38,557 nucleotides of DNA from a virus. Its lineage: Duplodnaviria > Heunggongvirae > Uroviricota > Caudoviricetes. A program made the position numbers and the translations under genes. The notes beneath the pieces are model-generated. The model ran no database searches, was not told the origin of the DNA, and worked only from the letters and a program-made list of their open reading frames with translations. The stretch's first letter is position 1, and each line of letters opens with the position of its first letter. Below, in pieces: positions 15,313 through 37,824 of this stretch. The stretch lies in IMG/VR virus record IMGVR_UViG_2925891887_000008, one strand, 5' to 3'.

Positions 15313-16083
15313 AGGGAAAGGTTGCCATCAATAGCAAGCAGTAGACAGCCTTTGTAATTGTATTAGACATAGAACAAATGCCTTTCAATGGTCTGCGTTA
15401 GAGCATTAATACGTTGCAAAAGGTCGAATGACGTTGCGCAAGTTAAGAAGTTCAATGCTCTTAAAAAAGCACTTGAAAGCAACGCCTTTAATTATTAAAA
15501 GCCAATTAATTTAGGCGGTTACTATGTTATCTTTGACACAAAAGATGTTTATTGACAATATATAAGTTCAATCTAACAAGGAGAAAAATTATGCCAAATG
15601 AAAATCTTGATATTGACTCAAGGACTACCGAGCAATTATACGAATGGTATTTGCAAGGAAATTTGATAGTCAATAGACGTTATCAAAGGAAACTTGTATG
15701 GTCTCTAGAAGAAAAGACTTCTTTAATATCTTCTATGCTGCAACAATATCCTATTCCGTTATTATTATTTGTTACCATCAATGAACAAAGAGAAATATTG
15801 GATGGAATGCAAAGATTAGAAGCAATTATGAGCTTCATCGAACAGAGATTTTCATTAGATGGACAATATTTTGATTTGGACTCTATAGCTTTAACAAAAC
15901 AACTTAAAGATAATGGAACTTTAATTCAGAAAGAACCAATCCTTTCCCGTGATTCTTCAGCAATTATTGCACGTTATCGATTTGCAATATCAGAATATAG
16001 CTCCACAAATGAAAATATTGACGAAGTATTCAGACGAATAAACTCAAACGGGAAGATTTTATCCAAACAAGAATTACGTAGTG

Positions 16084-16092
16084 CAGGAACAG
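16084..16092. repeat. IS1 target-site duplication, left copy (CAGGAACAG)
   Basis: Identical 9-mer immediately flanks both IS1 ends. Confidence 0.85.
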
Positions 16093-16147
16093 GGTGATGC
16101 TGCCAACTTACTGATTTAGTGTATGATGGTGTTTTTGAGGTGCTCCA

Positions 16148-16423
16148 GTGGCTTCTGTTTCTATCAGCTGTCCCTCCTGTTCAGCTACTGACGGGGTGGT
16201 GCGTAACGGCAAAAGCACCGCCGGACATCAGCGCTATCTCTGCTCTCACTGCCGTAAAACATGGCAACTGCAGTTCACTTACACCGCTTCTCAACCCGGT
16301 ACGCACCAGAAAATCATTGATATGGCCATGAATGGCGTTGGATGCCGGGCAACCGCCCGCATTATGGGCGTTGGCCTCAACACGATTTTCCGCCATTTAA
16401 AAAACTCAGGCCGCAGTCGGTAA
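16148..16423 (+). CDS. insA: IS1 InsA
   Basis: 91-aa [26 protein letters not shown]... typical of InsA. Confidence 0.85.
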
Positions 16424-16845
16424 CCTCGCGCATACAGCCGGGCAGTGACGTCATCGTCTGCGCGGAAATGGACGAACAGTGGGGATACGTCGGGGCTAAA
16501 TCGCGCCAGCGCTGGCTGTTTTACGCGTATGACAGGCTCCGGAAGACGGTTGTTGCGCACGTATTCGGTGAACGCACTATGGCGACACTGGGGCGTCTTA
16601 TGAGCCTGCTGTCACCCTTTGACGTGGTGATATGGATGACGGATGGCTGGCCGCTGTATGAATCCCGCCTGAAGGGAAAGCTGCACGTAATCAGCAAGCG
16701 ATATACGCAGCGAATTGAGCGGCATAACCTGAATCTGAGGCAGCACCTGGCACGGCTGGGACGGAAGTCGCTGTCGTTCTCAAAATCGGTGGAGCTGCAT
16801 GACAAAGTCATCGGGCATTATCTGAACATAAAACACTATCAATAA
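16342..16845 (+). CDS. insB: IS1 InsB frame (expressed as InsAB' by -1 frameshift)
   Basis: -1-frame ORF overlapping the insA 3' end; slippery A6C at 16399-16405. Confidence 0.8.
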
Positions 16846-16860
16846 GTTGGAGTCATTACC

Positions 16861-16869
16861 CAGGAACAG
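16861..16869. repeat. IS1 target-site duplication, right copy (CAGGAACAG)
   Basis: Identical to 16084..16092. Confidence 0.85.
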
Positions 16870-18187
16870 TTAGTAACTTCTCTGAACTGGTCAGATCGAT
16901 ATCAACATCGATCAGAGGTGATACTAGCCATTCTGACATTATGAATCTCCAGCAAATGCACAAAATTTCAATCAGTAACGATAGATTGGAGTACGGGGTA
17001 AATATCGATAACCACTTTTATATAAAACATCATATTTTAACAAGACGAAGTATTCGTGATTCTGATGACGAGGAATTGATAGCCAATATCCTTGCATATA
17101 TCAGTCTAGAAGAAAAACCCACATCTGGGTCAACTTCTCTCGACACATTCTATGGTCAAGGAAACTCCTCTCATGCTCATGGTGTCAGACAGCAATTAGA
17201 GTCTTTCATTCAAACCAATAACGCTGCCACTATTAAGCAGAATTTCATAGCTGTATATGAATTAATTACAAGCCTATATGACGGAAAAAATGATACTTTT
17301 AGAAGCCATATTTTAGGGGAGGATAATTCATCTCAAGAATGCCCTCGTTATTATCAAGCTGTGTTTTTGTCTATTTATGAACTTCTTTTCAACCAAAATA
17401 TGCAATTAATTGATAAAGAAGGTTTATTCTCGCAATTAAAAAACACTGGCAATACCATAATTATGGTTACCGATGGTGGCCGCTGGGCTGCAAGCACTCG
17501 TGAAAAAAGTGTTAATGATCTTGTTGCATTAATAAGTCGTTACTTCCAACCTGCTCCTCAAAAGTATGTGAATCATGCTTGGGTAACTGAAATTCGCAAT
17601 CTATTAACAAATTCTAGAACTGAACAACCAAGTTATGATTTCAAACAAGGGTTCTTTAATTTATCAGGTAAAAATGAATTTGATGATGAATGTTTAAAAG
17701 GAATATTACAAACTTGCGTAGCAATAAATAATATTGGAAAAAGCGCAAAAGGCTATATTTTAGTTGGTATTGCCGAAAATAAATTAACCGCAGATAGAAT
17801 TCAACATTTATATGGAGTAAATTCAATTGAGTTCAATGGGTTCTATATAAACGGAATTGATCATGAAGCAATGTTAGTCTCTGGTAGCATTGATGATTAC
17901 TTTATGTTAATAAAACAAAAAATACAAGGATACAATTTCACTGAAACTCTAAAACAGCAGATACTTAAGAATATTGAGTTTTGCTCTTACAATGGCTTAC
18001 ACATACTCAAGATAACTATTCAGAGCACAGGTCAAATTTGCGACTTTGAGAATATGTTTTATATCAGACAAGGCTCATCGACTGATCCAGTTACGGATAC
18101 ACAAAAAATCTCAGCTCTATTTAACTCTTACATGAACAGCTAATCAATCGCCATCTCCACTGGAGCTGGCTTATGGATAAAAACAAA

Positions 18188-23792: not shown

Positions 23793-25559
23793 ATGAACAC
23801 CACACTGACACTCGCAGATCTCGATCCCCGTCGGCAGGCCATGCTGCTGTACTTTCAGGGATACCGCGTAGCCCGCATTGCTGAAATGCTGGGCGAGAAA
23901 GTTTCAACCGTTCACAGCTGGAAAAAACGCGACAAGTGGGGTGACTATGGGCCGCTGGATCAGATGCAGCTCACCACCGCCGCACGCTACTGCCAGCTCA
24001 TTATGAAGGAGCACAAAGAAGGGAAAGATTTCAAAGAGATTGACCTGCTGGCGCGCCAGTCGGAACGCCACGCGCGGATCGGCAAGTTTAACAATGGCGG
24101 CAACGAAGCCGACTTAAACCCTAACGTCGCCAACCGCAACAAAGGCCCACGCCGTCAGCCGGAAAAGAACGTTTTCACCGATGAACAGATTGAGAAGCTG
24201 GAAGAAATCTTCCATTCCTCCATGTTCAACTACCAGCGCCACTGGTGGGAAGCTGGAAAAACCAACCGCATCCGCAACCTGCTGAAGTCACGCCAGATCG
24301 GCGCGACCTTTTACTTTGCCCGTGAAGCCCTGATTGACGCCCTGCTTACCGGACGTAACCAGATTTTCCTTTCCGCCAGTAAGGCACAGGCTCACGTCTT
24401 TAAGCAGTACATCATCGACTTCGCTAAAGAAGTGGAGGTGGAGCTGAAAGGCGATCCGATGGTGCTTCCTAACGGGGCCACGCTTTACTTCCTCGGCACC
24501 AATGCCCGCACGGCCCAGAGTTATCACGGCAACCTGTATCTGGATGAATATTTCTGGATACCGAAATTCCAGGAGCTGCGCAAAGTGGCTTCCGGTATGG
24601 CTATTCACAAAAAATGGCGACAAACCTATTTTTCCACGCCATCCAGCCTGACACACAGTGCTTATCCGTTCTGGTCCGGTGCGCTGTTCAACCGTGGGCG
24701 CAACAAAGCCGATAAGGTGGACATCGACCTGTCCCACAGCAATCTGGCCCCCGGCCTGCTGTGCGCAGACGGGCAATACCGCCAGATAGTCACCGTAGAA
24801 GATGCGGTGCGCGGCGGCTGTAACCTGTTCGACCTTGACCAGTTGCGCATGGAATACAGCCCGGACGAATACCAGAACCTGCTGATGTGTGAGTTCGTGG
24901 ACGATCTCGCGTCCGTGTTCCCGCTCAGCGAGCTGCAGGCGTGCATGGTGGACAGTTGGGAAGTCTGGACCGACTTTCATGCACTGGCCCTGCGCCCGTT
25001 TGGCTGGCGCGAAGTGTGGATCGGTTATGACCCGGCAAAAGGTACGCAGAACGGCGACAGCGCCGGATGCGTGGTGGTGGCACCGCCAGCCGTGCCGGGC
25101 GGTAAGTTCCGCATTCTTGAGCGTCACCAGTGGCGCGGAATGGACTTCCGCGCCCAGGCTGACGCCATCAAAAAACTGACCGAACAGTATAACGTGACCT
25201 ATATCGGCATCGACTCGACCGGCGTCGGTCACGGGGTTTACGAGAACGTGAAAGCGTTTTTTCCTGCCGTCAGGGAGTTTGTCTACAACCCCAACGTTAA
25301 AAACGCCCTGGTACTCAAGGCCTACGACATTATCAGCCACCGCCGTCTGGAGTTTGACGCCGGGCACACCGACATTGCGCAGTCATTTATGGCAATCCGT
25401 CGCGCCACCACCGCCAGCGGCAACCGCCCGACCTATGAAGCCAGCCGCAGCGAAGAAGCCAGCCACGCCGATCTGGCCTGGGCAACGATGCACGCATTGT
25501 TTAACGAACCGCTGCAGGGCGAATCCGCCAATACCAGCAATATTGTGGAGATTTTTTGA
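23793..25559 (+). CDS. P: Terminase ATPase (large) subunit P
   Basis: 588-aa ORF; N-terminus MNTTLTLADLDPRRQAMLLYFQGYR... typical of P2-family P. Confidence 0.9.
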   Translation: MNTTLTLADLDPRRQAMLLYFQGYRVARIAEMLGEKVSTVHSWKKRDKWGDYGPLDQMQLTTAARYCQLIMKEHKEGKDFKEIDLLARQSERHARIGKFNNGGNEADLNPNVANRNKGPRRQPEKNVFTDEQIEKLEEIFHSSMFNYQRHWWEAGKTNRIRNLLKSRQIGATFYFAREALIDALLTGRNQIFLSASKAQAHVFKQYIIDFAKEVEVELKGDPMVLPNGATLYFLGTNARTAQSYHGNLYLDEYFWIPKFQELRKVASGMAIHKKWRQTYFSTPSSLTHSAYPFWSGALFNRGRNKADKVDIDLSHSNLAPGLLCADGQYRQIVTVEDAVRGGCNLFDLDQLRMEYSPDEYQNLLMCEFVDDLASVFPLSELQACMVDSWEVWTDFHALALRPFGWREVWIGYDPAKGTQNGDSAGCVVVAPPAVPGGKFRILERHQWRGMDFRAQADAIKKLTEQYNVTYIGIDSTGVGHGVYENVKAFFPAVREFVYNPNVKNALVLKAYDIISHRRLEFDAGHTDIAQSFMAIRRATTASGNRPTYEASRSEEASHADLAWATMHALFNEPLQGESANTSNIVEIF

Positions 25560-26626
25560 TGGGAAAGAGTAAGAAGAACCGCGCTGCGGCGACGAAACAG
25601 ATCCAGCTTAAAAGCCAGACTACAGCCGAAGCATTCAGCTTCGGCGATCCCGTTCCTGTTCTGGACCGCCGAGAACTGCTGGACTATGTGGAATGCGTAC
25701 AGATGGACCGTTGGTATGAGCCGCCCGTCAGCTTTGACGGACTGGCGCGCACCTTCCGCGCTGCCGTGCATCACAGTTCCCCGATTGCAGTAAAGTGCAA
25801 CATTCTGACCAGTACCTATATCTCTCATCCACTGCTCAGCCAACAGGCTTTTTCGCGTTTTGTGCAGGACTATCTGGTATTTGGTAACGCCTACCTGGAG
25901 AAACGCACGAATCGATTCGGTGAAGTTATCGCCCTTGAGCCTGCGCTGGCAAAATACACCCGACGCGGGTTAGACCTGGATACCTACTGGTTTGTGCAAT
26001 ACGGTATGGCCACGCAGCCGTATCAGTTCACGAAAGGCAGCATTTTTCATCTGATGGAACCGGACATCAACCAGGAGATCTACGGCCTGCCCGGTTATCT
26101 TTCAGCCATTCCGTCCGCCCTGCTCAATGAGTCCGCCACGCTGTTCCGTCGAAAGTATTACATTAACGGCAGTCATGCTGGCTTCATCATGTACATGACC
26201 GACGCTGCGCAGAACCAGGAGGATGTGAACAACCTCCGCAACGCGATGAAAAGCGCCAAAGGTCCAGGCAACTTCCGCAATCTGTTTATGTACTCGCCTA
26301 ACGGCAAAAAGGACGGACTTCAGATTATCCCGTTGTCAGAAGTCGCAGCGAAGGATGAGTTTCTGAATATCAAGAACGTGAGCCGCGATGACATGATGGC
26401 TGCGCATCGTGTGCCGCCACAAATGATGGGGATAATTCCCCAGAACATCGGCGGCTTTGGGGATGTAAGCAAAGCAAGTAAGGTATTTGTTCGTAACGAA
26501 CTGACGCCTTTACAAAGGCGAATACAAGAACTTAATGAGTGGCTATGTGACGAGGTTATCAAGTTTGACCCCTACAAACTTGATATTGAAGATAACAATC
26601 ACTCTGCTATCATACCTATCATCTAA
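25556..26626 (+). CDS. Q: Portal protein Q
   Basis: 356-aa ORF overlapping the P stop (ATGA). Confidence 0.9.
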   Translation: MMGKSKKNRAAATKQIQLKSQTTAEAFSFGDPVPVLDRRELLDYVECVQMDRWYEPPVSFDGLARTFRAAVHHSSPIAVKCNILTSTYISHPLLSQQAFSRFVQDYLVFGNAYLEKRTNRFGEVIALEPALAKYTRRGLDLDTYWFVQYGMATQPYQFTKGSIFHLMEPDINQEIYGLPGYLSAIPSALLNESATLFRRKYYINGSHAGFIMYMTDAAQNQEDVNNLRNAMKSAKGPGNFRNLFMYSPNGKKDGLQIIPLSEVAAKDEFLNIKNVSRDDMMAAHRVPPQMMGIIPQNIGGFGDVSKASKVFVRNELTPLQRRIQELNEWLCDEVIKFDPYKLDIEDNNHSAIIPII

Positions 26627-26631
26627 ATTTC

Positions 26632-26655
26632 AACCGCCATCAGGCGGTTTTTTGT
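26632..26655 (+). terminator. Intrinsic terminator after Q
   Basis: AACCGCC-ATCA-GGCGGTT hairpin followed by TTTTTTG. Confidence 0.6.
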
Positions 26656-26710
26656 TTCCAAACCAAACCTACTATGATACACACAGTAGGAAAAAAATTG
26701 GAGCATTTAT

Positions 26711-27337
26711 ATGGATATCGAAAAGCTAAAAGAATTTTACGAAAAACTTTACTTTCAGGAAACGGAAAATAAAGACAAGATTTACAACAGAATTCAAATG
26801 ATATTTGGATTAATAGTAATCGACGCAACTATCGTAACATATCTGCTTAAAAACACATCCTTTGAAAATCATGCATTCTTTGCCTGCATTGTTATAGGAC
26901 TTTCATTATTATCAGTGTTTTTTATTTATAAAGCCTGCATGCTCCTAAAAAAAGCATTTTGGGGTAATGAATTCAAATACATTCCCAAACCTAAGGAAAT
27001 AGACGAATACTACAATGGCCTCATTAAATATGAAGCAGACTATAAAAAATATTGTGATAATAATGGGCTTACCTATAATGGTGAGCACTCATCAAGTAAA
27101 AAGTTCAATGAATACTTAGTAAAACAACTAGTAGAGTGTACTAGTTGGAATACTAAGAAAAATGAAATGAGAACAAGTCAAATATATCGAGCCACTAAAT
27201 TCTTTTTTTTCTCACTAATTCCATTAGTGATAGCGGTTGGCTTTTTTTTAGCGATGGATCTCGATTCAGCCTCGCCAAGGAAGACTAATGAGCCACATTT
27301 CATTATTATACCTGTAGATAATATCAGGAGATTATGA
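26711..27337 (+). CDS. AT-rich cargo membrane protein (208 aa, about three TM helices), unknown function
   Basis: RBS GGAG, ATG at 26711; hydrophobic segments at about residues 30-46, 55-73 and 164-182. Confidence 0.5.
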   Translation: MDIEKLKEFYEKLYFQETENKDKIYNRIQMIFGLIVIDATIVTYLLKNTSFENHAFFACIVIGLSLLSVFFIYKACMLLKKAFWGNEFKYIPKPKEIDEYYNGLIKYEADYKKYCDNNGLTYNGEHSSSKKFNEYLVKQLVECTSWNTKKNEMRTSQIYRATKFFFFSLIPLVIAVGFFLAMDLDSASPRKTNEPHFIIIPVDNIRRL

Positions 27338-27462
27338 TGGGAAAAGCCCCTACACCTAACAAGCCACCAGCGAAGACTCCAACTCCGCCGACACCGCCGA
27401 CACCGCCTAAATCTAGGCTAGTGAGAGACGATGATTCGAAAGCCAAAAGCAAAAGAGGTTAA
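27334..27462 (+). CDS. Proline-rich micro-protein a (42 aa; KTPTPPTPPTPPK core, SRLVRD motif)
   Basis: ATG overlaps the upstream stop (ATGA), RBS AGGAG; 9-bp in-frame repeats. Confidence 0.4.
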   Translation: MMGKAPTPNKPPAKTPTPPTPPTPPKSRLVRDDDSKAKSKRG

Positions 27463-27468
27463 AGTATC

Positions 27469-27642
27469 ATGATAAAGCCCAGCAACGAAGGAACTGGAAA
27501 ACCAAATTCTACAAGTAAATCACCTGTACCGCCTCAGCCGCCTCAGCCGCCTCAGCCGCCTCAGCCGCCTCAAACAAGGTTAGTACGAGAAAGCTTTGGA
27601 GAATACATTTCAAAGAGAGATACGAAAAATGACAAAAAATAA
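27469..27642 (+). CDS. Proline-rich micro-protein b (57 aa; (PPQ)5 core, TRLVRE motif)
   Basis: RBS AGAGG, ATG at 27469; (CAGCCGCCT)x4 tandem repeat. Confidence 0.4.
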   Translation: MIKPSNEGTGKPNSTSKSPVPPQPPQPPQPPQPPQTRLVRESFGEYISKRDTKNDKK

Positions 27643-27736
27643 CGAGCAAAAACCACCACCACCACCACCACCACCACCACTACCACCATCGTCCCGCATG
27701 CTATTTGATCACGCGGCCCCCCCTAAGAAGAAATAA
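27629..27736 (+). CDS. Proline-rich micro-protein c (35 aa; P9-L-PP core, SRMLFD motif)
   Basis: ATG at 27629 overlapping the end of b; (CCA)n tract. Confidence 0.35.
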   Translation: MTKNNEQKPPPPPPPPPLPPSSRMLFDHAAPPKKK

Positions 27737-27778
27737 CCTTAAGCCTGCGACTTAGCAGGCTTTCTTCATTAGCGCGCG

Positions 27779-27797
27779 CTCGTATCCCCGCCACGCC
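27779..27797. other. Candidate cos site (19-nt cohesive end)
   Basis: CTCGTATCCCCGCCACGCC closely resembles my recollection of the P2/186 cos core (complement GGCGTGGCGGGGA...); lies between Q and A as expected. Confidence 0.35.
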
Positions 27798-28139: not shown

Positions 28140-28565
28140 ATGAAAAGCTTTTACGTATTAATTTTAATTCTGGTTGCAAGCTTTGTTAGCGTCCCAGTTC
28201 AGGCGGTAACAGCTAAAAACTATGAGAAAGGAACTAAAGCTCAACAGAAATCAATATCTTACCTTTCATGTGCATTCTATGGCAGTAGCACACAATTAGA
28301 TCCTAGCTACACGGAGCAAGTACCTACAGCCGATATCAAGATATTACAGAAAGCAGCTTACCACGCTTACAACGATGCGCTCTCATACTTTGGCTATGAG
28401 GAACCAGATCACGAACAACGCATAATTGATTATGCTGAATTTGTGGCGTCGCAAGAAGCTGTGTTATGGGATAAGCCGGGAATGAATGGAAAGCAGGTAA
28501 CACTAATTGCTCGTTCTCTCTACAATGAGAGTAACTGTAACTTGTTACTGGACTCAATTAAGTAG
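28140..28565 (+). CDS. AT-rich cargo secreted protein (141 aa, Sec signal peptide), unknown function
   Basis: RBS GAGGT, ATG at 28140; N-terminal hydrophobic signal with ...VQA/V cleavage-like site. Confidence 0.5.
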   Translation: MKSFYVLILILVASFVSVPVQAVTAKNYEKGTKAQQKSISYLSCAFYGSSTQLDPSYTEQVPTADIKILQKAAYHAYNDALSYFGYEEPDHEQRIIDYAEFVASQEAVLWDKPGMNGKQVTLIARSLYNESNCNLLLDSIK

Positions 28566-28724: not shown

Positions 28725-28958
28725 TTAATGCAGCCAGCTGTCGTCTTCCCACACCTTCTGCATAATCTTCATCACTTGTTTTCTTTCTTCGTCCAGTTGC
28801 AGTCCGGTCAGTTCCACACCGTTAGAGCTACCTTTGCGGATGCGAATTACCGTTTTGGGATACAGGGGGCGCAGATTGCGGTAAAGCTCGGATTCAAGGG
28901 CGTCCAGGGTAGACTGGCTAATCTTCTGCTCTTTATCGATCATTATTTCAATGCGCAT
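28725..28958 (-). CDS. dinI: DinI-family protein (DNA-damage-inducible protein I-like)
   Basis: MRIEIMIDKEQKIS...LDALESEL...KVWEDDSW parallels E. coli DinI; start taken at the internal Met. Confidence 0.75.
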   Translation of the reverse strand: MRIEIMIDKEQKISQSTLDALESELYRNLRPLYPKTVIRIRKGSSNGVELTGLQLDEERKQVMKIMQKVWEDDSWLH

Positions 28959-28968
28959 AAAGGTCACC

Positions 28969-29157
28969 TCAGCTGATGACATCCATTGAGCGGTTGTATT
29001 CGTGGGTTCTGATTTTTGCCATGAGTTCATCTGTCAGTTCAGAAACCCACTGCAAAGCCAGCCCCTTCTCTTCATCACTACACTCACTAGCCGCTACAAG
29101 CTTAAGAAAAAAATCAATGCGCTGGAGCTTCAAAGACTCCAAAAAATAGTCCTGCAT
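28969..29157 (-). CDS. Small SOS-controlled ORF (62 aa) upstream of dinI-like gene; possible Tum-like antirepressor N-module
   Basis: RBS GGAGG, ATG at 29157, LexA box about 45 bp upstream. Confidence 0.4.
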   Translation of the reverse strand: MQDYFLESLKLQRIDFFLKLVAASECSDEEKGLALQWVSELTDELMAKIRTHEYNRSMDVIS

Positions 29158-29310: not shown

Positions 29311-31725
29311 TTAATACAGGTTTCGCCACTTATCATCTTCCTGCAAACGCTGGTTCCGATAGAAGATACGCAGGCCTGCTCCTGACGGAATACTGCCGCC
29401 GCGAAGGAGTAAATCGACCTCTTTCTCGCTGCCATTAAATCCTCTGGACTTCAGTTCATAGACGAGCTGCTGTCGCTGATGGTCTGTAATTCGCTGTTTG
29501 TAGTCTTTACGCCGTTTCGGTTTCACCAGGCGTAACCTTGCAGCCAGTTCCCGGCGCTCTTTTTTGCTCATACTGTGCAGGTAATCGTGCAACTCCTTGT
29601 CATCCATGCGGGTAATGTCCGTCCTAGTATCCCCATCAGCTGATTTGTCTTTCCCTTGTTGGTTCAAATTTTCAGCAAGGGGACAGTTATTGCCACGAGT
29701 CCAAGGGGCGCAAGCGCCCTGGTCGGCTGCCGCCTCCTGAACGTCAACGGCCTTACGAACCATTTTCCACTTCACCGCATGAGTGCAGATCTTGCCCTCT
29801 GCAATGGGTGACCAGATGCCATAAATACGAATACCGTGATCGCCATATGCGGTCGGTTCTTCGTTGATTTCATAAGCAGTTCTGATGAGGTGATATTTGC
29901 GGGGAACCAGTACGCCTCCCTGCTTCATGATGTAGGTGGCAAAACAACCAGCATCGGCAGCAGCCAGGATTGCATCAAGGCGCGGGTTATCCAGTACCGG
30001 CGCACCTGCTTTTTTGTCCCCCTGTTGCCTTGCCGCCTGACCAGCCAGCAATCGCAGTTCACGGTAAGCCTGACGCCCCGGAATGCCAAAGAAGCGGAAT
30101 TGCTGAACACGATGCAGAGACGCCCAGGCATTAACGTATTCAGCGTTATCACGCAGGGATTTACCCGTTTCCTTGCTGATCTCGCCAGCCAGACCACGCC
30201 CGTCAATGTTCTTACTGATGTATTTCGCGATGTAGCTTGTTGGCGTACCTTTGCGCGGGTTTATCAGCTCAGACTTAAAGCGTGGTCCCGTGTTATTACC
30301 CAGCTCCTCGCGGTCTTCACGAATGGCAAACTTACGCAACAAAGCAGTAATGGTGCGGCGATCTTTTTTGCGCATAAAACACAACAGGTGCCAGTGAACT
30401 GTACCGTCATGATGCGGCTCAGCCACCCGCACGCCATACCAGCGCAATCCGGCTTTGTGCATCGCCTTACGAAATGCAGCAAACATGCCGACCAGATAAT
30501 CACTGCTTTGTCTTACCGTCGTATTTGTCCAGGTCGGGTTGGGCCTGCCGTTATTTAGCGTGGAATGGAAACGTGACGGACAGGTGATGGTGTAGAAAAC
30601 GGCGCAGTCACCGCGCATTTCCGCGATAAGCTCCAGACCTTTAACACAGGCCATCATCTCATTGCGGCGATGCGCAGGGTTGCTGCTGCTGGCGTTTACC
30701 ACATCCTCCATGTCCAGCGTGTCGCCGTCTTCGTTCACCAGTTCATGAGAACGGAAAAACTCCAGCGACTTACGGCGCTGCTCACGTTTATGCATCATGG
30801 CTTCATAGCTGACATAGGGAGATGCTTTTTTGCTGACCAGGCAAACAGCACGCAACTGCTCTTCCCGCCATTCGCAACGCATCTTCCATAATTTCCGGTA
30901 CCACCAATCGGCGCACAACATACGCGCCAGCGAACCCGGAATGAGTTCATAGGGCACGGGTTTACGGCGGTTTCTTTTCCGGCGGAGTTGCTCAAACGCA
31001 GGCGGTATGACATCCAGTCGCAGGGTTTCTGCTGCCACCTTTTCCCATGTCTTGCGGATTTCTTCTGGCTTAACGTCATCGGTGGCATACAAATCGCCAC
31101 AAGCTGCATCAAGGCACATGCTCATATGCGCAGCAACAAGGGTGGACAGGCGTTTCACCTGATCCTGACTCATTTCAGGCAGAATCAGCAGGCCGTCCAG
31201 CCCTTCATGGCTTGCCATAAAGCGAAAAGAAGTGGATAGCTGACTGTCGCGTACATGCTCCAGCCGTTCCAGACATGGCTTAATCGTCTCACGTAAATAG
31301 CGGGAATAAGCCTTTGGCCTGCCAAGGCTGCTGAAGTATTCAATACGTTGCATCAGCGGCCTGCTGATATGGGAAGGCTGGGCGTTAACGTCTGCCAGAA
31401 TGACCATGTCCGGGTTAAAACGCTGCTGCTCATGCGCCAACTTTGCCCGGCTAATGAACTTATCCTGCTCCATTTCGCGCTGGACAGGATCACGGGATTC
31501 ATTAAAGAAATAACGCTCCCAAACCTGATCACTCAGTGCCTCGCGGCGCAGTTGTTCCTGCTCGTTATCGGCAGCGTACAGAGTGATCAGGTTTGAAAGC
31601 GCAGAAACCGGCGCAACTTCCGCCGGGTCCAGATAAGGGTTAATAGCCTTTTTCGGGCTGTTCCATGAGAATGCTGCGGCGGCCTCGTTAAAGCCGCTGC
31701 AGTTGTTCATATCAGCATGGCTCAT
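29311..31725 (-). CDS. A: Replication initiation endonuclease A (rolling-circle)
   Basis: 804-aa ORF at the P2 gene A position, upstream of cos. Confidence 0.85.
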
Positions 31726-34380: not shown

Positions 34381-34505
34381 GATGCAACATTCCTCGTTTA
34401 ATGATGATTAATCAGGACGAATACGGATCGTTTGTATTTTGTGAACACCATAAACATACGATCGCACTATGAAATCGTCAAGATAAAAGTTCACTTGGAG
34501 TGACC
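34381..34505. promoter_or_regulatory. Immunity switch region (face-to-face lytic/lysogenic promoters and operators)
   Basis: 125-bp gap between divergent apl and cI; GTGAAC...GTTCAC inverted repeat at 34442-34447 / 34489-34494. Confidence 0.35.
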
Positions 34506-35075
34506 ATGAATTTGGAGAAAGGCGGACGAGGCGCTATAGAGCGCATGGTAGAAGCTTATGGATTCAAAACTCGACAGGCGTTGTGCGATCATTTAGGAAT
34601 CTCTAAAAGTACACTCGCTACACGCTACATGCGTGACTCATTCCCAGCAGAATGGGTAATCCAGTGCGCCCTTGAAACGGGCACCTCGCTTAATTGGCTC
34701 ACAACTGGACATGGTTCAAAGCAAACTTCAGGTAATACAAATACGATGGAAGTTGCTAAATATGTATTATCTGATGGTGCCTTGCGTGAAGACGGTTTTT
34801 ATATTTTTGATAAGGGATTTCTACCCTCTACGTTTAAAAAACCTTTTGTCATCACAGATAACAATTCTGAATTTATTTGTGATAAAGAATTTGATGATAT
34901 ACGTGATGGTAAATGGGTAATAAGTATTGATGGCGAAATAACAATCCGCGACATTACTCGTTTACCCGGTGGAAGAATCTTCGTTGAAGGTGGAAACAGA
35001 ACCTTCGAGTGCAAGATAGAAGATGTTGAAATAATTGGAAAAATTATAAGTTTGACAATTAAGTACGTTAGGTAA
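34506..35075 (+). CDS. cI: CI immunity repressor (186-like)
   Basis: 189-aa protein with N-terminal HTH-like region (EAYGFKTRQALCDHLGISKSTLATRY), RBS GGAG; the track ORF starts 6 nt upstream at a GTG. Confidence 0.8.
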   Translation: MNLEKGGRGAIERMVEAYGFKTRQALCDHLGISKSTLATRYMRDSFPAEWVIQCALETGTSLNWLTTGHGSKQTSGNTNTMEVAKYVLSDGALREDGFYIFDKGFLPSTFKKPFVITDNNSEFICDKEFDDIRDGKWVISIDGEITIRDITRLPGGRIFVEGGNRTFECKIEDVEIIGKIISLTIKYVR

Positions 35076-35433: not shown

Positions 35434-36748
35434 GGGTCTTCCCTTGTTGTGGTGGCTGAAGGCATGATAATGGTGTATTTAATCGCCAGAGGTCACCGCC
35501 ATGGACGAAAAGTCCCTCTACGCTCATATTCTCAACCTGTCCGATCCGTGGCAGGTAAAGTCCCTTTCTCTCGATGAAAATGCCGGTTCTGTTACTGTCA
35601 CTATTGAGATCGCTGAAAACACCCGGCTAGCCTGTCCGACCTGCGGTAAATCCTGTTCTGTTCACGATCACCGTCATCGTAAATGGCGCCATCTTGATAC
35701 CTGCCAGTTCACCACTATTGTTGAAGCCGATGTTCCACGAATTATGTGTCCGGAGCATGGCTGCCTGACGTTGCCTGTTCCGTGGGCTGGCCCCGGAAGC
35801 CGGTATACGTTGCTATTCGAATCGTTCGTTCTCTCATGGCTGAAAATCAGCACCGTTGATGCTGTCAGGAAGCAACTTAAGCTCAGTTGGAATGCGGTTG
35901 ACGGCATTATGACCCGGGCAGTTAAGCGAGGTCTTGCCCGGATAAAAAAGCCATTATCCGCCCGTCATATGAATGTGGATGAGGTCGCCTTTAAAAAAGG
36001 ACATCGTTACATAACGGTGATCTCCGATCGCGATGGTCGGGCGCTGGCCTTAACGGATGATCGCGGCACAGAGAGTCTTGCCGGCTATCTTCGCACGCTC
36101 ACTGATGGGCAGTTGCTGGCTATCAAAACGCTCTCAATGGACATGAACGCGGGCTATATAAGAGCAGCGCGTATCCACTTACCCAGTGCGGTTGAGAAAA
36201 TCGCCTTTGACCGCTTCCATGTGGCGAAGCAACTGGGCGAGGTAGTTGATAAAACCCGTCAGAATGAACATCCGCACCTCCCTGTTGAAAGCCGACACCA
36301 GGCAAAAGGAACCCGCTTCCTGTGGCAGTACAGCGATAAGTGGATGACCGAATCCCGGCAGGAAAAGCTGATGTGGCTGCGTGCACAGATGAAGCTGACG
36401 AGCCAGTGCTGGGCGCTGAAAGAGCTGGCAAAGGATATCTGGAACAGGCCATGGAGCGAGGAAAGACGGAGTGACTGGCAGAGATGGTTGGCGCTGGCGG
36501 CTAACAGTGACGTTCCCATGATGAAAAATGCCGCGAAAACGATAGGAAAAAGGCTGTACGGGATCCTGAATGCGATGCGACACAGTGTCTCAAACGGAAA
36601 TGCGGAGGCACTTAACAGCAAGATCAGGCTGCTGAGGATAAAAGCCAGGGGATACCGAAACCGGGAGCGCTTTAAACTGGGGGTGATGTTCCACTACGGA
36701 AAGCTGAATATGGCGTTCTGAGCCTTCCCACCATGATCGGGGAAGACC
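35434..36748 (+). mobile_element. ISL3-family insertion sequence (1315 bp)
   Basis: Imperfect terminal inverted repeats GGGTCTTCCC..TGGTGG at both ends, single transposase ORF, 8-bp duplication. Confidence 0.8.
35501..36721 (+). CDS. ISL3-family transposase
   Basis: 406-aa ORF with N-terminal zinc-ribbon-like CPTCG...CPEHGC and a DDE-like core. Confidence 0.8.
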   Translation: MDEKSLYAHILNLSDPWQVKSLSLDENAGSVTVTIEIAENTRLACPTCGKSCSVHDHRHRKWRHLDTCQFTTIVEADVPRIMCPEHGCLTLPVPWAGPGSRYTLLFESFVLSWLKISTVDAVRKQLKLSWNAVDGIMTRAVKRGLARIKKPLSARHMNVDEVAFKKGHRYITVISDRDGRALALTDDRGTESLAGYLRTLTDGQLLAIKTLSMDMNAGYIRAARIHLPSAVEKIAFDRFHVAKQLGEVVDKTRQNEHPHLPVESRHQAKGTRFLWQYSDKWMTESRQEKLMWLRAQMKLTSQCWALKELAKDIWNRPWSEERRSDWQRWLALAANSDVPMMKNAAKTIGKRLYGILNAMRHSVSNGNAEALNSKIRLLRIKARGYRNRERFKLGVMFHYGKLNMAF

Positions 36749-36756
36749 CTTATACA
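36749..36756. repeat. ISL3-family element target-site duplication, right copy (TTATACAT)
   Basis: Identical to 35426..35433. Confidence 0.75.
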
Positions 36757-36792
36757 TACAGTAAAAATGCTCTCTATTGGAGGGCATTTTTT

Positions 36793-37824
36793 ATGGCAGT
36801 ACGAAAACTCACCACAGGAAAATGGCTTTGCGAATGTTACCCCGCCGGACGTAGTGGGCGTCGTGTGCGTAAACAATTCGCCACCAAAGGCGAAGCACTG
36901 GCTTTTGAGCGTCACACGATGGAAGAAACCGAAGCAAAGCCCTGGCTGGGCGAATCAGTAGATCGTCGAACCCTGAAAGACGTGGTTGAGCTATGGTTCA
37001 AACTACATGGTAAATCTCTGACTGCTGGGCAGCATGTCTATGACAAATTGCTGCTGATGGTTGACGCTCTGGGCAATCCCCTTGCAACCGATCTCACATC
37101 TAAAATGTTTGCCCATTATCGAGATAAACGACTGACAGGTGAGATCTACTTCAGCGAGAAATGGAAGAAAGGGGCCAGCCCGGTCACCATTAACCTGGAG
37201 CAAAGCTATCTAAGTAGTGTTTTTAGCGAACTATCCCGCCTGGGCGAATGGTCGTATCCAAACCCACTGGAGAACATGCGAAAATTCACCATCGCAGAAA
37301 AAGAGATGGCATGGCTTACCCATGAGCAGATTGTTGAACTGCTGGATGATTGCAAACGTCAGGACCCAATTCTGGCACTGGTAGTCAAGATATGCTTAAG
37401 CACAGGCGCACGCTGGCGAGAAGCAATAAACCTAACCCGATCACAGGTGACCAAATACCGAATTACCTTTGTAAGAACGAAGGGGAAGAAAAACAGAAGC
37501 ATCCCTATCAGTAAAGAGCTTTATGAAGAGATCATGGCGCTTGATGGGTTCAATTTCTTCACAGACTGCTATTTTCAATTTTTATCCGTGATGGAAAAAA
37601 CGTCTATCGTGCTCCCTCGCGGTCAACTTACACACGTTCTGCGTCATACGTTTGCGGCGCATTTCATGATGTCGGGTGGAAACATCCTTGCTTTGCAAAA
37701 AATCCTCGGACATCACGACATAAAAATGACTATGCGTTATGCTCATCTATCACCTGATCACTTAGAGACAGCTCTTCGTTTCAATCCACTAGCAACTTTG
37801 GATGTTACTAAATCAGATTCTTAA
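36793..37824 (+). CDS. int: Tyrosine integrase (P2/186 family)
   Basis: MAVRKLTTGKW...LSTGARWREA...HVLRHTFA...YAHL has the tyrosine-recombinase catalytic residues; RBS GGAGG. The track ORF has a spurious upstream extension. Confidence 0.9.
   Translation: MAVRKLTTGKWLCECYPAGRSGRRVRKQFATKGEALAFERHTMEETEAKPWLGESVDRRTLKDVVELWFKLHGKSLTAGQHVYDKLLLMVDALGNPLATDLTSKMFAHYRDKRLTGEIYFSEKWKKGASPVTINLEQSYLSSVFSELSRLGEWSYPNPLENMRKFTIAEKEMAWLTHEQIVELLDDCKRQDPILALVVKICLSTGARWREAINLTRSQVTKYRITFVRTKGKKNRSIPISKELYEEIMALDGFNFFTDCYFQFLSVMEKTSIVLPRGQLTHVLRHTFAAHFMMSGGNILALQKILGHHDIKMTMRYAHLSPDHLETALRFNPLATLDVTKSDS

Follow-up and report, generated by a model that had tools for sequence, protein, structure and literature searches.

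The stretch analysed here, IMG/VR virus record IMGVR_UViG_2925891887_000008 (38,557 nucleotides of viral DNA assigned to Duplodnaviria, Heunggongvirae, Uroviricota, Caudoviricetes; the whole of it is called the window below), is a P2-like prophage that carries a self-contained accessory cargo cassette in the portal-to-cos part of its gpA-gpQ hotspot, namely a gene for a membrane protein of 208 amino acids (aa) and, directly behind it, three micro-open reading frames (micro-ORFs a, b and c) that specify proline-rich proteins. On comparative sequence evidence we hold with high confidence that the three micro-ORFs are real, conserved and mutually related genes, and that their pairing with the membrane protein extends throughout the family to which that protein belongs. 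The functional explanation that we tentatively prefer, and that may well prove wrong, is that the membrane protein is a PycTM-like effector, that it is set by docking of the micro-proteins, and that the cassette would thereby serve phage exclusion. The four genes are arranged as follows.

26711..27337, + strand: membrane gene (ORF) encoding a three-pass inner-membrane protein of 208 aa, helices at about 30-46, 56-72 and 164-180
27334..27462, + strand: micro-protein a, 42 aa, with a (TPP)n core, the motif SRLVRDDDSKA and a basic tail
27469..27642, + strand: micro-protein b, 57 aa, with a (PPQ)n core, the motif TRLVRESFG and a basic tail
27629..27736, + strand: micro-protein c, 35 aa, with a P9LPP core, the motif SRMLFDH and a KKK tail

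The reading frames interlock: the TGA of the membrane gene overlaps the ATG of ORF a (ATGA), ORFs a and b lie in one frame with a gap of a TAA and two codons, and the ATG of ORF c is located 14 nt upstream of the stop of ORF b, i.e. inside ORF b. The three products are small, proline-rich and basic (pI 10.0-10.7) and have the motif [ST]-R-[LM]-[VL]-[RF]-[DE] in common. None of them contains a cysteine, signal peptide, lipobox, or hydrophobic leader or segment, and neither Pro-Arg-Pro repeats nor an export motif were found in them, the cores consisting of TPP, PPQ and poly-P. A preliminary description, made from the letters of the window, had listed the same genes in the same order, with the stop/start overlap and the shared post-repeat motif, and was accurate in all of this except that it let ORF c begin at 27630 instead of 27629 (the length of 35 aa was given correctly, and the end is at 27736). 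It had further credited each micro-ORF with its own Shine-Dalgarno sequence; that of a is clear (AGGAG), whereas b has an acceptable one and c a weak one. It had also labelled the membrane protein as three-helix, which is right for the membrane-spanning helices but leaves out a cytoplasmic helical bundle. At the DNA level, the proline cores of all three ORFs are perfect tandem repeats.

27385..27407, + strand: 9-bp repeat, 2.6 copies (CCGCCGACA), proline core of a; copy number differs between strains
27529..27572, + strand: 9-bp repeat, 4.9 copies (CCGCCTCAG), PPQ units of b; 3-6 copies among near-identical E. coli prophages
27652..27688, + strand: 3-bp repeat (ACC/CCA), 12.3 copies, proline run of c

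Near-identical cassettes are held by 13 of 5,426 complete E. coli genomes, and there the RefSeq annotation includes the membrane protein only and none of the micro-ORFs. These close copies differ chiefly in repeat copy number; in addition they contain two single-base homopolymer deletions (in an A7 run at locus L002 and a C7 run at locus L005), which would shift the frame either late in b and early in c or in the tail of c, and which may be sequencing or assembly errors or else real inactivations. Diverged cassettes were compared at membrane-protein identities of 75% (a metagenome contig), 58% (Serratia) and 47-52% (E. coli, Salmonella and viral contigs), and many of these occupy the identical portal-to-cos slot. 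Orthologues of b and c are present in all diverged cassettes examined and orthologues of a in all except Serratia, and in at least ten of the cassettes a, b and c return as orthologous classes that can be told apart by their post-proline signatures: R-R-I/V-V-I-E-D-D-S-K-A for class a (orthologue motif ..R[RS][IVL]V[IR][ED]DDSKA), T-R-L-V-R-E-S-Y-G for class b and S/T-R-Q/M-V/A-F-D-H for class c, with R23, F26, D27 and H28 of micro-protein c invariant across eight lineages. Pairwise dN/dS over the three ORFs amounts to 0.14-0.38, substitutions within every ORF fall disproportionately on third codon positions, the proline codons differ from lineage to lineage, proline runs of 5-12 residues are found in all lineages compared, the start/stop overlaps are kept, and each ORF has a start codon and a Shine-Dalgarno-like motif across the cassettes. 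It is because these orthologous classes recur in diverged cassettes under purifying selection that we regard the micro-ORFs as genes, in agreement with the preliminary description, which had taken them to be real and related and had proposed a survey of related elements; in that survey the cassette indeed recurs with its peptide architecture conserved. Alone of the three, micro-protein b is picked up by gene calling in some other cassettes (WP_061090207; P0040-P0045). In Serratia marcescens (L011-L013) the cassette comprises the membrane gene, b and c, no clear a, and a cos-like remnant; it has no neighbouring P2 structural genes and adjoins an IS3 transposase and a reverse-transcriptase gene, and may represent a satellite or a decayed element.

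The same comparison bears on the possibility that the micro-ORFs are the decaying remnant of a larger gene or non-functional open repeat DNA, a notion that is by now largely refuted and to which we attach hardly any probability. It could appeal to the in-frame fusion of the module in relatives (see below), to the single frame that a and b share across the TAA, to the missing RefSeq annotation and to the two homopolymer deletions in close relatives. The split three-ORF layout is nevertheless kept under purifying selection at 47-75% membrane-protein identity, together with starts and ribosome-binding-like motifs. Moreover, since ORF b overlaps ORF a in a different frame in a cassette type of 51% identity, the suggestion in the preliminary description that one longer gene was broken by a stop codon fails for this locus; what it retains is an evolutionary kernel, in that the module appears fused in frame in many relatives.

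The membrane protein matches PHROG 36961 (E 1.9e-17), the function of which is unknown, and profile searches with the protein and its relatives returned neither a Pfam family nor a transporter domain. A profile built on the membrane protein retrieved 1,080 cluster representatives with a cut-off of E<=1e-3, and 322 of these reach E<=1e-10. Many relatives are longer (250-310 aa) and continue after DLDxSSPRK, the most conserved motif of the family, which lies just beyond the third membrane helix, with a helical linker of 60-110 aa that leads into a proline run and thereby ends on a module of the micro-ORF type. This module consists of a Met and a short charged N-terminus, a proline run, the motif R-hydrophobic-hydrophobic-x-acidic and a charged tail, and is found in one to three copies per relative, either as a separate ORF or as an in-frame C-terminal fusion to the membrane protein. 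A proline cluster is present in the C-terminal tail of 40 of the 52 long-tailed relatives, and a Met (typically MS[DN]) occurs within 25 residues before that cluster in 29 of 39 fused tails, as compared to an expected 30%. Wherever the DNA was at hand, the Met retained in a fused gene is preceded by a ribosome-binding motif, and the arrangement AGGAG-N6-ATG is identical in a fused Vibrio gene (L041) and a split Salinivibrio pair (L043). Because downstream or fused modules exist at all inspected loci but two (L033 and L074, the partner at L033 being devoid of prolines), the micro-protein is, judged from the sequences, a portable module of the membrane-protein family, of which the P2 cassette is a split and triplicated form. 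At one further locus (L038, 944-1051) a proline micro-ORF lies out of frame within the linker of a fused gene and a second module follows in frame.

The family is sparse: it was present in five of 401 Enterobacterales genomes sampled and in 13 of 301 genomes of the Vibrio-type family, and absent from 400 Gammaproteobacteria sampled at class level. In the phage collection no DNA or protein match to the cassette was found, and no credible Rfam RNA family at the cassette. The preliminary description had known of no described P2 gene or defence system with this organisation; likewise, Pfam, PADLOC, PHROGs, Rfam and the literature searched contain no described match to a membrane protein combined with polyproline modules.

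The cassette is clearly delimited within the prophage. The terminase gene (23793-25559) and the portal gene (Q; 25556-26626) both read towards a cos-like site, and between the terminator of the portal gene and cos there is nothing other than the membrane gene and the three micro-ORFs. The elements that bound and possibly control the cassette are the following.

26632..26649, + strand: terminator-like hairpin with T-run (element to 26656) that ends the portal (Q) transcript, from a consensus scan
26668..26690, + strand: inverted repeat CCTACT..AGTAGG with a candidate -10 box inside it (TATGAT, 26673-26678)
27741..27762, + strand: closing hairpin, bidirectional terminator-like, from the consensus scan
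27781..27797, - strand: cos-like sequence, reverse complement GGCGTGGCGGGGATACG, read directly and conserved in loci L009 and L013

Related loci have a hairpin with a T-run at the equivalent place after the portal gene and an equivalent hairpin 3' of ORF c. The sequence at 27781-27797 is presumably cos, a name that we assign from its likeness to the 186/P2 cos sequence. The inverted repeat is a putative promoter or operator of the cassette: a full sigma-70 promoter was not called there by the consensus scan, and a T(A/G)TGATAT-like element is located 30-45 nt 5' of the start codon in several lineages of which the remaining upstream sequence has diverged. The G+C content of the membrane gene is about 31%, versus about 54% in the phage. 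Two earlier assertions, namely that the genes sit between Q and cos and that they form a discrete cargo cassette, are thus confirmed by the portal gene ending at 26626, by the hairpin that comes next, by the cos-like sequence, and by the enclosing hairpins and AT-rich composition.

In P2-like phages the cos-proximal gpA-gpQ region is a variation hotspot with cargo such as old and tin (PMC9122126), and the cassette has precisely this position, between the portal gene Q and the replication gene A and beside cos. The membrane protein (accessions WP_048237166 and WP_021518687) figures in the hotspot lists of Table S5 of that study, as 'hypothetical' only, and the micro-ORFs are missing from those lists for this cassette type. 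Across cos follow a secreted protein of 141 aa, DinI (28725-29030) and the GPA replication gene (29311-31725). The 141-aa protein (28140-28565, + strand) begins with a signal-like sequence and matches no Pfam family; the hotspot lists carry it as WP_000834899, again 'hypothetical'. Farther along the window an ISL3-family transposase (35501-36721, + strand) is situated between a CI-type repressor gene (34500-35075) and the prophage integrase (36733-37824).

Relatives of the membrane protein occur in other variable or defence-related surroundings as well. Some are located in another variable slot, gpV-gpS, of other P2-like prophages (L045-L048), and a Vibrio relative has as neighbours an AAA_21 ATPase with an HNH nuclease, as well as an integrase and a CI-type repressor. 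At the head of a type I restriction operon, overlapping the gene behind it, the membrane gene is found in two genomes that belong to one family: in genome G292 (L061, 83-6030) the homologue overlaps hsdR by 8 nt, and in genome G026 (L062, 728-6343) the next gene encodes a protein of 213 aa with an EcoEI_R_C domain only, after which come hsdM, hsdS and an AAA_15/21 ATPase. The restriction subunit of G292 has a proline-rich N-terminal extension of about 80 aa that resembles the module, by eye only. The gpS-gpV slot of the window itself (15552-18143, + strand) contains a gene of the GmrSD_N (DUF262) type (15552-16097), an IS1 (16148-16845) and an ORF with a Schlafen AlbA_2 domain (16941-18143), and looks like a defence-type gene that was disrupted by the IS1 insertion.

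A possible activity of the membrane protein is suggested by profile comparison. PycTM-, 2TM- and SLATT-type effectors of known defence systems damage the membrane and abort infection. When 40 relatives were searched against PADLOC, four matched PycTM (best E 2.8e-6), six matched 2TM effector profiles and two matched RT-SLATT, and the matches to these effectors (PycTM, CBASS 2TM, RT-SLATT) are weak and nearly full-length. For a profile-profile comparison, 11 ORFs matching the PycTM profile were collected from other genomes; hhalign aligned the family with these over 138 colinear columns (probability 77%, P 2e-5), and reversed and block-shuffled controls remained at or below 1.6%. The protein atlas gave unnamed clusters only, plus a PycTM lead at 0.88. 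Neither the membrane protein nor its relatives match PycTM or SLATT in Pfam, and a downstream proline ORF was found at none of 12 PycTM-profile loci looked at. From its sequence the membrane protein is probably related to PycTM-type effectors remotely, rather than being a member of that group.

Structure prediction with AlphaFold2 (AF2) yielded an all-helical model for the 208-aa protein (pLDDT 79.7, seven sequences), with three membrane helices and a bundle formed from the N-terminal helix and a long loop. For a fused family member, modelled from a 34-sequence alignment (pLDDT 84.9, pTM 0.72), two strands appear: a new one at 87-90, in the WGNxYK stretch after the second membrane helix, which hardly varies across the cassettes, and a second one at 239-242, formed by the R-R-V-I of the motif behind the prolines. 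The motif block has a pLDDT of 89 and the linker is poorly predicted. AF2 thus predicts a pairing of the post-proline motif with the conserved cytoplasmic strand. Charge counts over 120 members favour a topology with the N-terminus in, the loop in and the C-terminus out. The predicted contact within a fused chain would then cross the membrane and therefore makes sense only for a free cytoplasmic peptide; the start signals retained in fused genes would fit a free peptide as the active form, and the topology of the fused chain stays a paradox. A Foldseek search against the PDB gave nothing below E 0.2 (BAR-like helical noise only), and in a wide VIA-align search the best Z of 10.8 was in the range of generic helical bundles.

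In the explanation that we prefer, the membrane protein would be a distant, colinear relative of the PycTM/2TM/SLATT-type membrane effectors which, having no nucleotide-sensing domain, would be controlled by the micro-proteins instead. The post-proline strand of a micro-protein would dock by beta-augmentation on the conserved cytoplasmic strand WGNxFKY, directly behind the second membrane helix, and its rigid proline helix would run along the aromatic-rich cytoplasmic bundle. We favour the direction in which the micro-proteins keep the effector closed. Their supply would be tied to coupled, EF-P-dependent translation. If an infection shut down host translation, or if a phage factor displaced the micro-proteins, the effector could be set free and the infecting phage kept out. 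As to a possible toxin-antitoxin-like pair of membrane toxin and small-protein inhibitor, the cassette displays gene order and translational coupling only. The preliminary description had offered three hypotheses, of which that of disordered adaptor proteins came closest, in the sense that the module resembles a tag for docking on the membrane protein. A broader extension, in which polyproline micro-proteins would be a widespread and almost wholly unannotated class of docking and regulatory subunits of PycTM-like effectors in a new, EF-P-gated two-component immunity by which the cell would sense a phage factor or a loss of translation capacity, with a tag that can be grafted onto other defence proteins, for instance a restriction subunit, is one that we consider doubtful.

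Several observations count against effector control by docking. The protein of the window itself matches a single PADLOC profile, PDLC00669 ('2TM effector'), at a marginal E of 2e-4, the hhalign probability is no higher than the 77% given above and membrane proteins inflate such scores, and the cassette and its immediate neighbourhood lack a cyclase, a reverse transcriptase and a nucleotide-binding domain. The pairing of motif and strand derives from one single-chain AF2 model, and an outward C-terminus would put the fused module in the periplasm, in conflict with cytoplasmic docking; in addition, three distinct and individually conserved micro-proteins face one predicted docking site, which is left unexplained. 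A profile of 48 free peptides scored the N-terminus of the G292 restriction subunit at 4.1 bits (rank 13 of 1,672), which is not significant. As for expression and activity, the sole hint of transcription comes from the RNA-seq contigs of one study, in which 86-87% of the sampled words were present, the literature searched contains no phage-protection test of the membrane protein or the cassette, and the gpA-gpQ hotspot also harbours cargo unrelated to defence.

Among the other explanations, one would assign the cassette to the cell envelope, where it would act in exclusion or modification. The C-terminus of the membrane protein would then be periplasmic, the coiled coil and polyproline of the fused forms would span the periplasm like TonB or a spanin, and the free micro-proteins would be exported by, or act with, the membrane protein, e.g. 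to block DNA injection. The charge counts agree with this, as do the long helical linker with its proline run behind the third membrane helix in many relatives and the position of the top-conserved DLDxSSPRK just outside that helix, and the out-of-frame proline ORF in one linker recalls Rz/Rz1. We still think it unlikely: signal peptide, lipobox and hydrophobic segment are all missing from the micro-proteins, AF2 pairs their motif with a cytoplasmic strand, the fused forms retain a Shine-Dalgarno sequence and a Met as if the free peptide counts, and a weak indication of the cytoplasm comes from the possible tag carried by a restriction subunit, itself a cytoplasmic protein. That same tag enters into another proposal to which we give little credence, namely that the membrane protein is an anchor and that the polyproline tag recruits partners to it (the micro-proteins here, a restriction subunit elsewhere), perhaps at the site where phage DNA enters. 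The HsdR tag lacks statistical support, the similarity at the profile level is to effector families, and the 'cargo' of the P2 cassette would be merely a charged tail of 10-20 aa, which leaves little to recruit; what speaks for tethering is the translational coupling of the membrane protein to hsdR or to the EcoEI_R_C-domain protein in two genomes, the portability of the module, free or fused, and the predicted docking strand.

The two remaining hypotheses of the preliminary description fare worse. Proline runs of 5-12 residues stall ribosomes when EF-P is lacking, and the presence of such runs in all lineages together with the tight ORF overlaps could mean that the micro-ORFs are EF-P-dependent translational sensors or leader-like ORFs, in which the act of translation matters and not the products. 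Because a terminator follows ORF c, here and at related loci, there is no downstream gene to control and this idea fits poorly; furthermore, the post-proline residues and tails are conserved as amino acids, as the dN/dS values indicate, and the proline codons are not the same between lineages. We therefore judge a pure sensor very unlikely. Toxins analogous to proline-rich antimicrobial peptides, directed at the ribosome or a chaperone, for which the membrane protein would provide export or immunity, are more improbable still: that the peptides are small, proline-rich and basic and are encoded beside a membrane-protein gene is compatible with such a role, yet they have neither Pro-Arg-Pro repeats nor a leader or export motif, what is conserved in them is a short strand-like motif with acidic residues behind it, and many relatives of the membrane protein carry the module as a fusion. 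No transporter domain is present. Two specific candidates were rejected: a spanin pair like Rz/Rz1, in view of the missing cysteine and hydrophobic leader, and regulatory leader or arrest peptides, in view of the hairpin terminator directly 3' of ORF c.

Irrespective of function, three consecutive conserved protein genes are absent from the standard annotation of a well-studied type of phage, i.e. micro-proteins have been overlooked here. The combination of membrane protein and polyproline module constitutes a large family of about 1,000 sequence clusters, which resides on prophages and further mobile elements of genomes from the Enterobacterales and of the Vibrionaceae type. If the cassette were a defence module, it would embody a new control principle, in which a portable tag made of a proline helix plus a strand docks on a membrane effector, and it would link EF-P-dependent translation to immunity. 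With a size of 1.1 kb and boundaries of its own, the cassette can be cloned and dissected in standard laboratory strains.

Among known systems, the PycTM, CBASS '2TM' and SLATT effectors of Pycsar, CBASS and reverse-transcriptase defence (PDLC02364, PDLC00669/00691/00711 and PDLC03819) are like the cassette protein in size (about 160-210 aa) and in the order of their parts (N-terminal helix, membrane hairpin, short conserved stretch, helical region and C-terminal membrane helix), and both groups are found in defence hotspots. Their systems have no polyproline micro-protein partners, however, whereas the cassette has no signal-making enzyme, and its protein is no more than a candidate for causing membrane damage. 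The spanins Rz/Rz1 resemble the family in combining a membrane-anchored protein that has a helical extension with a small proline-rich partner encoded separately, in overlap or embedded. A signal peptide and a lipobox cysteine mark Rz1 as a lipoprotein; micro-proteins a, b and c, in contrast, carry no lipoprotein signal, and the lysis genes of the prophage are located elsewhere. The prr locus, in which the anticodon nuclease PrrC is held latent by a type I restriction enzyme, provides a parallel for a suicide-type effector coupled to a restriction system, here by gene order only and in two genomes, but there is no sequence relationship and the P2 cassette is without restriction genes. Insects and mammals make proline-rich antimicrobial peptides that resemble the micro-proteins in being short, basic and rich in proline; the micro-proteins differ from them in having no Pro-Arg-Pro, in their strand-plus-acidic motif, and in being leaderless, intracellular and also found fused. 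By position the cassette compares with the cargo of the gpA-gpQ hotspot, such as old and tin: it lies in that hotspot, on the portal side of cos, and its AT-rich composition and autonomous boundaries are points of likeness too.

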